Shown here: one piece after another, positions 8,659 to 41,429 of the stretch
Numbering within the stretch: position 1 is the first letter of the stretch
Layout: every line of letters begins with the position of its first letter
Assembly (NCBI GenBank): GCA_021432655.1
Contig: MU271183.1
Coordinates: forward strand, 1 to 64,000
Length of the DNA stretch: 64,000 bases
Reading direction: 5' to 3'
DNA from: Atractiella rhizophila
Taxonomy: Eukaryota
Made by a program: the position numbers and the translations under genes
The notes under the pieces: model-generated
What the model was told of the DNA's origin: nothing
Seen by the model: the letters and a program-made list of their open reading frames with translations, nothing else
The model's database searches: none

Positions 8659-8772
8659 CTAGTCACAAAACAGAGTTAGCAAGAGCTCAAACAGGAGGTG
8701 CAGGGTGGCAGGAGATCGGTCAAGTGGAAAATGACAGCGTCACGAAAGACGCAACTGAGCAGCACAACGATT

Positions 8773-10414
8773 CCCACTTTTTACACCTCTTTCAGCCGCA
8801 ATAGCCTGAAATTATTATGTTCTACCAAAAAACCAATTCGAAACCATCATTGTAGACATGCACACGGCATCCTCCTACCCCAGCCTACTCCTCTCAGTAA
8901 ACGACCAAAAACGCACCAAATGCCCAAAGAAATGGTTCCTTTTTTACTCTCTCCTTAGTTGCCCAGCTCTCGCTACGTCCCCTTGTATGGCCGCGCTGAG
9001 GAGACTTTGCGGAAGCATCAATGTCGCCGTCCATCGTAGGGAGGGCGTTTGGACGCTCACTACAATGGTGGATCACGTAGTTTAGTTTGGAGAGCAGTTC
9101 ACTATGTTCAACGCAAGATCCAACCAAGTCCAAGCTCTTCAGAACCTGCTTGAGAACTTCTTTCCCTTCCCAAAAATAACGGTCGCACAGATTCTTCAAA
9201 CTTTTGTCAGCTTCCTGACGTAGAAATTCGTTTTCCTAACCTGCCGCTGGATTAAGGCTTGCCAAAGTCATCAAGATCAATAGTTCGAACAAAACTCACG
9301 ATAAATAATCCTATCTTTGAGCTAATGACTTGCAAATAAAACAAACGGGTCGAAGACAAGGAGCAAAACGATTAGCCTACTTTCGGTCGTTTCGGAAGTG
9401 AGATTTCTTCATACATTATTTCTGTATCCATGCTCTACAATTCCCATTCAGCGTCACAATTTCATCAGGAGCGTGAAACCTGCAACACATAAATAAATCT
9501 GGCTCATGATAACGAAATGGCGTACCATCATAGCCCTTGGACCCCACGGTCTGATAAGCCATGGCTTTTAGTTTCCCATCCTTCACATAACCCACTTTTT
9601 ACACCTCTTTCAGCCGCAATAGCCTGAAATTATTATGTTCTACCAAAAAACCAATTCGAAACCATCATTGTAGACATGCACACGGCATCCTCCTACCCCA
9701 GCCTACTCCTCTCAGTGAACGACCCAAAAACGTACCAAATGCCCAAAGAAATGGTTCCTTTTTTACTCTCTCCTTAGTTGCCCAGCTCTCGCTACGTCCC
9801 CTTGTATGGCCGCGCTGAGGAGACTTTGCGGGAGCATCAATGTCGCCGTCCATCGTGGCGAAGGTGTCTGAACGCTCACTACAATAGTGGATCACGTAGT
9901 TTAGTTCGGAGGGTATGTTCAAGGAAACAACCAACTCCAAGCTCTTCAGAATCTGCTTGCGAACTTCTTTCCCTTCCCAAAAATAACGGTCGTACAGATT
10001 CTTCAAACTTTTGTCAGCTTCCTGACGTAGAAATTCGTTTTCCTAACCTGCCGCTGGATCAAGGTCTTAAACCCCCATTAAGGCTTGCCAAAATCATCAA
10101 GATCAATAGTTCGAACAAAACTCACGATAAATAATCTTATCTTTGAGCTAATGACTTGCAAACAAAACAAACGGGTCGAAGACAAGGAGCAAAACGATTA
10201 GCCTACTTTCGGTCGTTTCGGAAGTGAGATTTCTTCATACATTATTTCTGTATCCATGCTCTACAATTCCCATTCAGCGTCACAATTTCATCAGGAGCGT
10301 GAAACCTGCAACACATAAATAAATCTGGCTCATGATAACGAAATGGCGTACCATCATAGCCCTTGGACCCCACGGTCTGATAAGCCATGGCTTTTAGTTT
10401 CCCATCCTTCACAT
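8773..10414. repeat. Tandem duplication, 2 x ~0.82 kb (8773-9589 / 9591-10414); the first copy carries an orphan 3' end of the O-methyltransferase gene
   Basis: Direct alignment: identical ends, with SNPs and indels in the middle. Confidence 0.95.
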
Positions 10415-38335: not shown

Positions 38336-38586
38336 TTTGAATGCTTTGCAGTCGTGGTGGCTGATGTTGATGAGACAGACTTTGGCAATGCTCTGTGTAA
38401 TTTTACTGCTGTTCGTGGAACAATGGACCAACCCTTCAGTATTCAATTCTGACACATCGGCGATTAAGTATTTGGATTTGTGATCTTGCCTTTTGCCGAA
38501 GTACCTCTGCTCACGTGATTGCAGTGACAAGATATAGTTACCGACTAGAGCACCAAGAAATTTTTTTTTTTGACCATCGCCTCAAG

Positions 38587-40479
38587 ATGCCTCAGGATCT
38601 GTTCACCCTCACCGCAGACCCAACACCCCTTCCACCTAACCATCCTTTTCATTTCTCGCGGTCTCTCCCAACCGACGGGAAGAAAAAGGTGCTTAAATCC
38701 CACCTCGCCCTCCTCAACTACTCGTCTGAGCCCGCTGTTTCTTCCCGCGCACGAAAAGCTACTACATCCCTAACTTCTGATTCGCAAGGTGCGAATTTCC
38801 ATTTGCACTCGAATAACAATCAAGATACTGATCTTTATTAATTGGTTGAAGGCAAGAAAAGAGGCATTTCTAGGAATGAGAAACTCCGCCTGGAGCGATC
38901 CGTTAGTAGTAGCTTTGCGCGGAAGAGGCGGGCAAATGGAGCTGGAATTGAGAGTGCAATGGCAGAGACAACAGAGGAGGAGAGGAACAGGGTGCTAGGT
39001 GATGTCAAGGGGAAGACGGCGGAAGAGAATATTTGGGCTGATGGCGGAGATGAGGGGAAGCAGGTGTGCTTTTTCTTCCACACAGAGTATTTTCAGCGCA
39101 GGAAATTACGTTCTTTTCTCATATGCCTGGCACCGCGCTTGCGAGTTCTTACGGGGTGACTGGTCCGATGAGGGTCTCAATGCGCTGTAGCTGTTAGTAG
39201 ACATTGCGGGAGCATATGTGCTATGGCTTGGTCGCTACTGTGCACAATGCACAGGCCCTCGGCCTCTTGAAGAGATCACACTTTTGACAGATCAAGTGCA
39301 TTCTGCTGATCAAGTTGATTTATGCTCAACTAGACAACTAGTAGCAGGTCCGTCGTCTAGTTGTGAGATTGCTGTTAATTCAGCTTGTTGAGTCGAGTGG
39401 CGATGCAGCAGAGTGTTGGAGAACCTGCTTGTTAATGTTAAGGTAATCACGCAATGACCAGCTTTGTCGCTCCTCGTACTCGAGCTGCGAATTACGACGC
39501 TGTTCTCGTAAATAATGTTGCATCCCTCTTGCTTTGGCAACTTCTTCCTCATGATCCTACGAGGTGGAAAGGTGCTGCGATTGGGAAGATCGAGCCTCCT
39601 CCTAAGGTCACGGCATGGTCTTAGGAGTATCCGACGGTATCTCCCTTGCTGACATTCGGATGAAGCAAGGGTCGTTTAAAGCGGATGACATCCTCTACAT
39701 TCTGTCTACTTCAATATGTAGCTGAGAGAAACATGCTGACTTCGGCAGTAAAGGTGCAGCTTCCTCCATCAGCTCTCAAGTCCGAAAAAATGAAGATGCC
39801 CCATCCAGGATCGTCGTACAACCCGTCTTTGACATCCCATCAATCTCTGCTTTCAGTAAACCACGAGTCTGCAATAGTCGAAGAGGAGAAAGAATCAGCG
39901 GCACGCGCAGTGAAGGATCAAATGGAAGCAGGTCGGGAAGACCGCAAGCGAAAGCGTATTGAAGGCGTTGAAGATGAAGTTGGGAGTGGAGAGGAAGCAT
40001 CAGGAGGGGAGGCTGAAGGAGACGCGGATTGGAAGAAGGGACCAAGGAGAAAGAAGAAGAAACTGTCGAGTCTGAAGAAGGAAGCGAGGAAGGAAGAGGA
40101 GAAGAGACTTGAGGAGAAAAAGAGGCTCAAGGCCCAGCGGAGACAAATTGATGAGTTGGCGGTCCCCGAGTCGATAGAAGAGAAGGCTATTGTACCTTAC
40201 GAGCCACAACCATCCAAACCACTACCCGTTGAAGAGGTTGAGGTCGACCTCACATTTCAGCTTACTGATTCACTTGCACCATCCCTTCGCCAGTTGGAGC
40301 CGGAAGGAAGTCTCATTCGAGACTTTGACCAACGTACAAAGAAGATGACAGGACTTGGTGGGTTGAAGAAGGGAGGTATCAAGGGTGGGCAAGGGAGAGG
40401 AGGGAAGGATGCTCAGAAGCATTGGAAGAACAAGGAGAAGATCGTTGAGAAGCCGGGGTGGCGGTTTTGGCAGGGTTGA
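38587..40479 (+). CDS. NOP53: Ribosome biogenesis protein Nop53/GLTSCR2; exons 38587-38788, 38852-39063, 39754-40479
   Basis: VLKSHLALLNYSSEPAVSS, PHPGSSYNPSLTSHQSLL, FQLTDSLAPSLRQLEPEGSLIRD; splice phases join in frame. Confidence 0.85.
39140..39283 (+). ncRNA. Candidate intronic structured RNA, H/ACA-like, no target identified
   Basis: Stem GAGGGTCT/AGGCCCTC enclosing two hairpins (CAATG/CATTG; GCAT-TGTGC/GCACA-ATGC), followed by AGATCA and ACA at 39278-39280. Confidence 0.3.
39295..39517 (+). ncRNA. Candidate H/ACA snoRNA, snR5-like (25S psi1124; degenerate psi1004 pocket)
   Basis: Hairpin TGCAT/ATGCA, H-like AGAGTG at 39410, hairpin GAGAAC/GTTCTC, then ATA+3 nt. Arms TCTGCTGATC (39302-39311) and GAGTGGC (39395-39401) pair with 25S GCCAUUU-UU-GGUAAGCAGA. 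Confidence 0.5.
39522..39693 (+). ncRNA. H/ACA snoRNA, snR31-like (guide for the 18S psi999 equivalent)
   Basis: 3' hairpin with lower stem ATCCG/CGGAT and upper stem CCCTTGCT/AGCAAGGG; pocket ACGGTATCT (39634-39642) + TCGTTT (39672-39677) is complementary to 18S AAACGA-UC-AGAUACCGU; ACA box at 39688-39690, 16 nt from the upper stem. Confidence 0.85.
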
Positions 40480-40593
40480 AATCCAGATTTTATGTTTGTG
40501 CACGTTATATTGTTTAAACCATATGGTGAATCACTGGTAGCTATTTGGGAGCGGAGCAATGTTAACACGCAAGTCGATCCTGTAACAGATACA

Positions 40594-40664
40594 GCTGCTA
40601 TAGTTTAAGGGTAGAATCGTACCTTCCCAAGGTATGGGCCCGAGTTCGAGTCTCGGTGGCAGCA
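40594..40664 (+). tRNA. tRNA-Gly (CCC), intronless
   Basis: Cloverleaf: acceptor GCTGCTA/TGGCAGC-A, anticodon arm GTACC-TTCCCAA-GGTAT, T arm CCGAG-TTCGAGT-CTCGG; T-run terminator near 40680. Confidence 0.95.
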
Positions 40665-41429
40665 GTTACTTTGTTTATCTTTTTATTGGGGTAATTAATA
40701 TGCTATTTTTACATTATCTTACCGAGTGCGCCATCTTTCTTTCTCTCCCAGGTCATCCACTTCTTGGACTTCAAAAACCGCCATGCTGTGATGACGAATC
40801 TGCAATCTTGCGATGTTGGCTCAGCCGATCGCCGGCTTAAACCCGAACGTGGTGCAAGCGATTGCCAAGTCGTGATGTATGCAGCGACCACAAGCAACCA
40901 CGAAAGCTCTGCCCGCCTCACTCCTAGCCCACGCCGGGGCCTCACTACGCTATTCTCAATCGCGGGTTTTGGGCAATAGGGAGTGCTAGAGGGACAGGGA
41001 AGATATTCAGGTGAAAAGGTACGTCAATGTTTGCAATTGCAACTAGCCAGTCTTCTTTCTTCTTGCCTTTATTTTTTCCAAGTGCCTTCACTTTTGGAGC
41101 GTCAGCATTGTGATACAAACCGATTTGTTGCGTTTATTGTGTCTGTCGGGAAAAAAAGCACCTCGAGCCCATCTTGTACTTCGTAGCCCCAAGAGATATA
41201 TCGATGAGGGCTGTCTTATCCTTCAGCTGCTGAATGTGACGTTTTATGGCATGCAAAGGCTTGAAATATATAACGAAGCCCACAGACAGGCTAGGTTGGA
41301 CTGACTAGGCCATGGAGTCTATGGTATTACCTGGGAACATTTACGATAATGCAGCAACTACTTTATAGCTGCTCTATCACTCTTGGACCTTTAGGATGAA
41401 TTTACTGACACATCCCGCAGTACGATACC

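Follow-up and report, generated by a model that had tools for sequence, protein, structure and literature searches.

A probable snR31-type H/ACA guide RNA in the long second intron of Nop53 in Atractiella rhizophila

The Nop53 gene of Atractiella rhizophila lies on the forward strand of contig MU271183.1 (assembly GCA_021432655.1), within the stretch of 64,000 nucleotides (nt) analysed here, referred to below as the window; all positions are counted from its first letter. The second intron of this gene, at 690 nt, is about ten times as long as the first (63 nt, the sole other Nop53 intron checked), raising the question of what it carries. The original prediction, made from the letters alone, read it as a cluster of up to three near-abutting box H/ACA small nucleolar RNAs (snoRNAs). 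The analysis presented here points to a smaller content: the intron probably hosts one box H/ACA snoRNA of ~170 nt, at ~39522-39693, with the guide hairpin of an snR31-type pseudouridylation guide and an atypical 5' half.

The spliced intron and its probable guide hairpin

The host gene was identified as Nop53 by its third exon (39754-40476), which matches Pfam family PF07767 with an E-value of 1.3e-20 (74.6 bits, cut-off 24.9) and is 100% identical to the NCBI entry "hypothetical protein BT69DRAFT_1315034" of Atractiella rhizophila (P0001, 432 residues). The protein start agrees with that of the deposited entry. A three-exon model yields a product of 380 residues:

38587-38788, + strand: Nop53 exon 1, 202 nt, with ATG at 38587; supported by the reading frame and the match to P0001
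38789-38851, + strand: Nop53 intron 1, 63 nt, GT..AG; joint present in contigs of runs X23 and X3
38852-39063, + strand: Nop53 exon 2, 212 nt; supported by frame, protein match and contigs
39064-39753, + strand: Nop53 intron 2, 690 nt, GT..AG; removed whole, joint present in four of four runs
39736-39740, + strand: CTGAC, likely branch-point motif, judged from its letters, 43 nt past the proposed snoRNA 3' end
39754-40479, + strand: Nop53 exon 3, 726 nt, ending with the stop codon; supported by Pfam PF07767 and identity to P0001

Splicing was followed in contigs of four public runs (X23, X1, X2 and X3) compared with positions 38400-40700; X1 and X3 belong to the same study, so that three sources are represented. 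Three of the four runs were only guessed to be RNA, but their contigs carry spliced forms and therefore derive from RNA. The junction 39063/39754 ("skips 690, GT..AG") was found in contigs of all four runs, and the 63-nt joint of intron 1 in two of them. The reading frames and this junction bear out the predicted 690-nt intron joining the Nop53 exons in frame (GKQ/VQLPP). In X23, unspliced contigs also run through intron 2, at a depth of 20-55; contigs of the exons and of the junction reach ~280-770. The lack of contig cover over the intron in X1-X3 is splicing itself and is uninformative on small RNA.

In H/ACA snoRNAs the upper stem of a guide hairpin usually lies 14-16 nt from the box. A custom scanner that required a box (ACA or ANANNA) with a lower stem beside it, then an internal loop and an upper stem at this spacing, returned one clean hairpin in the intron, at 39628-39687. 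Conserved distances in H/ACA snoRNAs are also mentioned in PMC8216456. The parts of the hairpin, and those assigned to the remainder of the proposed snoRNA, are as follows:

39628-39687, + strand: guide hairpin; lower stem 39628-39633/39682-39687 (6 base pairs, bp), upper stem 39643-39650/39664-39671 (8 bp)
39634-39642 and 39672-39681, + strand: guide pocket strands, an internal loop of 9+10 nt
39634-39642, + strand: 5' pocket strand, 9 Watson-Crick bp with the 18S stretch immediately 3' of the unpaired U-N
39672-39677, + strand: upper part of the 3' pocket strand, 6 bp with 18S immediately 5' of the target U
39688-39690, + strand: ACA box, abutting the lower stem, with 16 nt between upper stem and ACA
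39523-39586, + strand: putative 5' hairpin of the snoRNA, 64 nt, with no clear pocket
39587-39593, + strand: putative hinge; its AGAUCGA, in a 12-nt single strand, is the closest approach to an H box but does not fit ANANNA
39599-39627, + strand: perfect 12-bp hairpin between hinge and guide hairpin

Together with the adjoining ACA, 39628-39687 is a canonical pseudouridylation guide hairpin. The snoRNA's 3' end would lie at ~39693.

Target ribosomal RNA (rRNA) was taken from 106 fungal ribosomal DNA loci in metagenome contigs, retrieved with a fungal-specific primer; the bounds of 18S, 5.8S and 25S in two of them, L067 and L075, were set by Rfam. Within the conserved fungal 18S context (..GATCGAAGACGA-TC-AGATACCGTCG.. 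or near variants), positions 39634-39642 form 9 Watson-Crick bp with AGATACCGT, and 39672-39677 form 6 bp with AAACGA or AGACGA just before the target U, one of them G-U in the commonest fungal context. Where the upper stem begins, 16 nt ahead of the ACA, the target U and its 3' neighbour stay unpaired. At locus L067 the pairing amounts to 11+6 bp, at 18S U992.

According to PMC5699541, Psi999 of yeast 18S rRNA is guided by snR31 and has Am974 and Cm1007 nearby. L075 carries A at -25 and C at +8 from the target U, consistent with the yeast Am974/Psi999/Cm1007 numbering; the -25 base of L067 is G, a substitution. In Neurospora crassa, ACA5, an snoRNA of 187 nt with the homologues snR31, snoR5 and ACA8, is described as guiding 18S Psi996 via its ACA hairpin (PMC2780460). 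The predicted target corresponds to the Psi999 uridine of yeast 18S rRNA, and the candidate would thereby be a functional counterpart of yeast snR31, Neurospora ACA5, plant snoR5 and human ACA8. An snR31 type, raised earlier, is supported for the third unit by the pocket of the ACA hairpin, which matches the 18S site of such guides.

The agreement is above chance when both box and geometry are required: in dinucleotide shuffles of the region, 17 bp arose in one of 100 and at least 15 bp in three. The same boxed scan over the whole window and both strands (128 kilobases) gave two hits of at least 14 bp, of which the guide hairpin is the stronger.

By the route known for intronic snoRNAs, on which this proposal is modelled, the RNA would be released from each Nop53 precursor messenger RNA by splicing, debranching and exonucleolytic trimming, which would stop at bound Cbf5, Nop10, Nhp2 and Gar1. 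The pocket would then pair with 18S around a single U and direct pseudouridylation at the equivalent of yeast Psi999.

Variation among the unspliced contigs of X23 is uneven along the intron. Two contig variants cover 39037-39324, one of them with 24 differences and two gaps in 288 nt, and over 39394-39550 a variant shows 13 differences and two gaps in 157 nt. For 39521-39754 there is just one contig, which departs from the window at one position (39712), with no difference placed in 39521-39711; its depth is 54.9 versus 29-35 summed upstream. This pattern weakly favours a constrained and somewhat more abundant RNA at 39521-39711 within an otherwise unconstrained intron, with the reservations that contig depth is a mean value and that the exons are likewise near variant-free. 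The exon contigs of X23 show almost no variants, against ~8-9% across 39064-39550; the second variant of that stretch could come from an allele, a second nucleus or a strain mixture.

A number of points weigh against a snoRNA at this position. A search of 39510-39725, which takes in the interval separating the putative 5' hairpin from the guide hairpin, gave no canonical H box (ANANNA); the nearest H-like sequences are AGAUCG(A), starting at 39587, and AGGAGU, starting at 39623, and the perfect 12-bp hairpin abuts the guide hairpin just where the hinge is expected. In the 5' hairpin no pocket stands out and the rRNA matches are at chance level; when the non-canonical hinge motifs were tried as its box the matches reached at most 12 bp, mostly with two G-U pairs. 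The Rfam check that had been proposed, with snR31, snR5 and other H/ACA models, came out negative: neither a gathering-score match nor, in 201-nt and 1001-nt scans at E up to 10, any plus-strand H/ACA match was obtained. At permissive settings, 38900-39900 and 39500-39700 produced nothing beyond weak matches, most of them to microRNA families or on the minus strand, and at gathering score the sole match in the whole window is a tRNA. The 18S sequences come from metagenomic fungi, not from A. rhizophila itself, and without the box requirement matches of at least 17 bp occurred in three of 40 shuffles. Furthermore, the candidate was read in the intron of one species; contigs are unable to reveal a discrete small RNA or its ends; and, as assemblers may collapse isolated variants, the lack of differences in X23 indicates low divergence at best.

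On another reading the guide is real but built on a non-standard plan, with three hairpins and no ANANNA hinge, a divergent design that would be typical of Pucciniomycotina; the ~460 nt upstream may then hold non-canonical or orphan units, making a small cluster. We regard this as possible, at low confidence. A further explanation, that the intron is merely long and holds nothing functional, the ACA hairpin and the 18S match being coincidental, would agree with the lack of any overall excess of structure, with the missing H box, Rfam match and comparative support, and with the frequency of box-free matches. It is doubtful, because a 17-bp match with the right geometry and box arose in just one of 100 shuffles and the hairpin is one of two hits in 128 kilobases of real sequence. 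Moreover, the uridine on which the match falls is one whose conversion to Psi is guided in both yeast and Neurospora, and 39521-39711 seems less variable than the remaining intron. A single snR31-type guide with an atypical 5' half is therefore preferred.

The other boxed hit of the window-wide scan lies at ~8700-8815 (+ strand), in an intergenic region, where a long hairpin is followed by ANANNA at 8809. Its pairing is 8+7 bp, including two G-U pairs, with the 18S stretch containing the yeast Psi1181/1187 sites. The following hairpin, before the ACA at ~8856, is poor, and this hit may be due to chance. The same neighbourhood contains two copies of a ~190-230-nt segment (~8776-8958 and 9591-9818) with near-identical stop-to-stop translations on both strands; they look like a local duplication, ~815 nt apart.

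The upstream part of the intron

The intron had been described as filled almost end to end with hairpins. This is not upheld by its folding: the whole 690 nt fold with z = -0.13, and nine of 20 shuffles are at least as stable. In sliding windows of 80 and 140 nt, z ranges from +1.84 to -2.44. The individual segments (all + strand) fold as follows:

39140-39283 (proposed unit 1): z = -0.10; 87 of 200 shuffles at least as stable
39295-39400: z = -2.30; 5 of 200 shuffles at least as stable
39380-39517: z = -1.30; 19 of 200 shuffles at least as stable
39522-39627: z = -1.33; 21 of 200 shuffles at least as stable
39628-39693: z = -2.41; 6 of 200 shuffles at least as stable; minimum free energy -21.4 kcal/mol

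The second of these segments contains, at 39299-39399, a near-continuous stem-loop of ~100 nt without box, target or known family. It holds a 12-nt inverted repeat (39327-39338/39352-39363) and a micro-exon of the deposited gene annotation.

Of the three units, the third alone contains a hairpin, its 3' one (39628-39693), with both H/ACA geometry and an above-chance rRNA target. For units 1 and 2, box, above-chance rRNA target and support from conservation are all lacking, and the scanner found no two-hairpin combination with ANANNA and ACA anywhere in the intron. Accordingly, of the three H/ACA units proposed, the third is retained, on its ACA hairpin and 18S pocket, and the first two are not. 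Of the two rRNA complementarities found, the one in 39628-39687 stands above chance; matches of at least 14 bp, like the one in 39386-39436, occur 1.5 times per shuffle.

This second bipartite match was considered as another guide. It pairs by 14 bp with the 18S stretch containing the known Psi1181/1187/1191 cluster, and the position at which it points is, we take it, one base off a known yeast site. The rate of 1.5 hits of at least 14 bp per shuffle (40 shuffles) puts the pairing at chance level; the upper stem is weak and no box follows 13-17 nt downstream. The match was rejected as a guide on its chance-level pairing and the lack of a correctly spaced box. A search of both strands for C/D snoRNAs gave no antisense element of at least 10 bp beside CUGA, and no good C box. 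The first ~460 nt of the intron show no sign of function.

How far, then, could the intron still be a cluster, with two or three near-abutting H/ACA snoRNAs (39140-39283, 39295-39517 and 39522-39693) carried on one lariat and separated by endonucleolytic cleavage, in the manner of the intronic clusters of plants and flies? The length of the intron, its unexplained first 460 nt and the stable fold of 39295-39400 would suit such an arrangement, as would an ACA at 39278 following a long, loosely paired segment and the proximity of the 14-bp match to the 18S Psi1181/1187/1191 cluster; in addition, orphan or non-canonical guides would evade the scans used. The failure to find any pair of H and ACA boxes, the fold of unit 1 (z = -0.10), the chance-level match and the lack of C/D candidates all argue the other way. 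So does the variation in X23: units 1 and 2 diverge by ~8-9% between contig variants, and the ANANNA at 39510, overlapping the proposed terminal AUA of unit 2, has its first A changed in the variant contig. Among the differences listed in the minimum-free-energy structure of 39140-39283, five of seven fall on paired bases, and all five of these break the pair. With a single unit passing, the polycistronic cluster was abandoned as the description of this intron, and we consider it unlikely.

No second copy of intron 2 was found elsewhere in the window. An origin as a repeat or transposon insertion was accordingly set aside, the intron being no obvious repeat at the scale of the window.

The deposited protein model and the gene's surroundings

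The deposited protein P0001 is 52 residues longer than the 380-residue product, aligning with it through a 53-residue insert, and is rebuilt exactly when two exons within intron 2 are added:

39334-39347, + strand: micro-exon of the deposited model, 14 nt; unsupported, no joint in contigs
39462-39606, + strand: inner exon of the deposited model, 145 nt; unsupported, no joints, overlapping the 5' part of the proposed snoRNA

The three extra junctions that this model demands were not found in the contigs of any of the four runs, and the intron contig passes 39606/39607 unspliced. A profile of eight homologues scores the 432-residue form higher than the 380-residue form (103.2 versus 96.0 bits), and a MAFFT alignment sets the insert residues YDA..W..DP..P.PK against conserved columns of these homologues. 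When the 53 insert residues were shuffled, the mean score was 103.65 bits (standard deviation 3.9) and 99 of 200 shuffles equalled or exceeded the real one; the gain in bits is therefore due to length and not to homology. A Pfam search of the inner open reading frame gave no significant match. The earlier view that the intron holds no convincing coding frame is in keeping with these results, the annotated inner exons having neither a junction in the contigs nor a homology signal.

Most probably, the inner exons were introduced in error during annotation. The deposited 432-residue Nop53 thus probably includes 52 residues translated from an intron, and the product supported by RNA has 380; the intron and exon join of the original prediction is better than the deposited annotation. 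That the deposited model is nevertheless correct for at least some transcripts, with the hairpins incidental, would draw on the exact micro-exon and 145-nt exon structure of the protein, on the alignment and profile score, and on the tendency of contig assemblies to drop rare isoforms, but it is very unlikely in view of extra junctions in none of the four runs against the 690-nt skip in all four, the unspliced passage over 39606/39607, the length-only profile gain and the lack of a Pfam match.

Several other features were observed around the gene. A 12-nt inverted repeat, 92% complementary (39037-39048/39762-39773), lies in the exons and flanks both ends of the 690-nt intron; it could draw the splice sites together, or could be a product of chance. 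At position 40233, in exon 3, six nt are inserted in frame in the contigs of X1 (GAGGTC) and X3 (GAGGTT). These contigs also differ from the window at ~1% of exon positions, and both features indicate that close relatives or strains of the fungus are present in other public runs. The Nop53 messenger RNA contigs stop near 40497. A tRNA-Gly gene (CCC) is located at 40594-40664 (+ strand), on the same strand as Nop53 and 115 nt past its stop codon (Rfam, 58.1 bits; ARAGORN).

Relation to known guide RNAs and snoRNA hosts

The candidate would add a probable pseudouridylation guide to a subphylum, Pucciniomycotina, in which homology searches find few H/ACA snoRNAs, and suggests that at least the snR31-type guide has diverged there instead of being lost. 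It would also couple the production of an rRNA-modification guide to the transcription of a ribosome-biogenesis gene. The understanding of snoRNAs in general is unchanged.

Among eukaryotes there is a precedent for Nop53 as a snoRNA host: bioRxiv 10.1101/487496 counts zebrafish nop53 as a host gene of this kind. The A. rhizophila gene, an orthologue of this vertebrate host, would likewise carry an intronic snoRNA, and nothing points to common descent of the arrangement. A literature search for NOP53 as an intronic snoRNA host yielded no fungal case, and one combining Atractiella rhizophila with introns yielded no paper; the genome set of PMC5824354 includes an "Atractiellales sp".

Intron-encoded H/ACA snoRNAs are documented in fungi, with two of 20 N. 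crassa H/ACA genes according to PMC2780460 and a Pezizomycotina H/ACA snoRNA in a vacuolar-sorting-protein gene's intron according to PMC8216456. Like these, the candidate would be a single snoRNA per intron, lies in sense orientation within a protein-coding host and is presumably released by splicing and trimming. Unlike them, it belongs to another host and to the lineage Pucciniomycotina, and its host is a ribosome-biogenesis factor in its own right. The clusters of intronic snoRNAs in rice and Drosophila that PMC2780460 cites share with the Nop53 intron only a length unusual for the gene: several recognisable units occur in each of their introns, and one unit passes the tests here.

The closest relationship is with yeast snR31, N. 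crassa ACA5, plant snoR5 and human ACA8 (SNORA8), guides for the 18S uridine at yeast position 999, which is also the predicted target of the candidate. As in N. crassa ACA5, the guide is in the ACA-proximal hairpin and the size is similar, a probable ~170 nt versus the 187 nt given for ACA5; ACA5 is listed as intergenic (PMC2780460), whereas the candidate is intronic. It differs from all four by having no detectable sequence or covariance-model similarity to them, by the lack of a canonical H box and by the additional 12-bp hairpin ahead of a guide hairpin that would address the same uridine.

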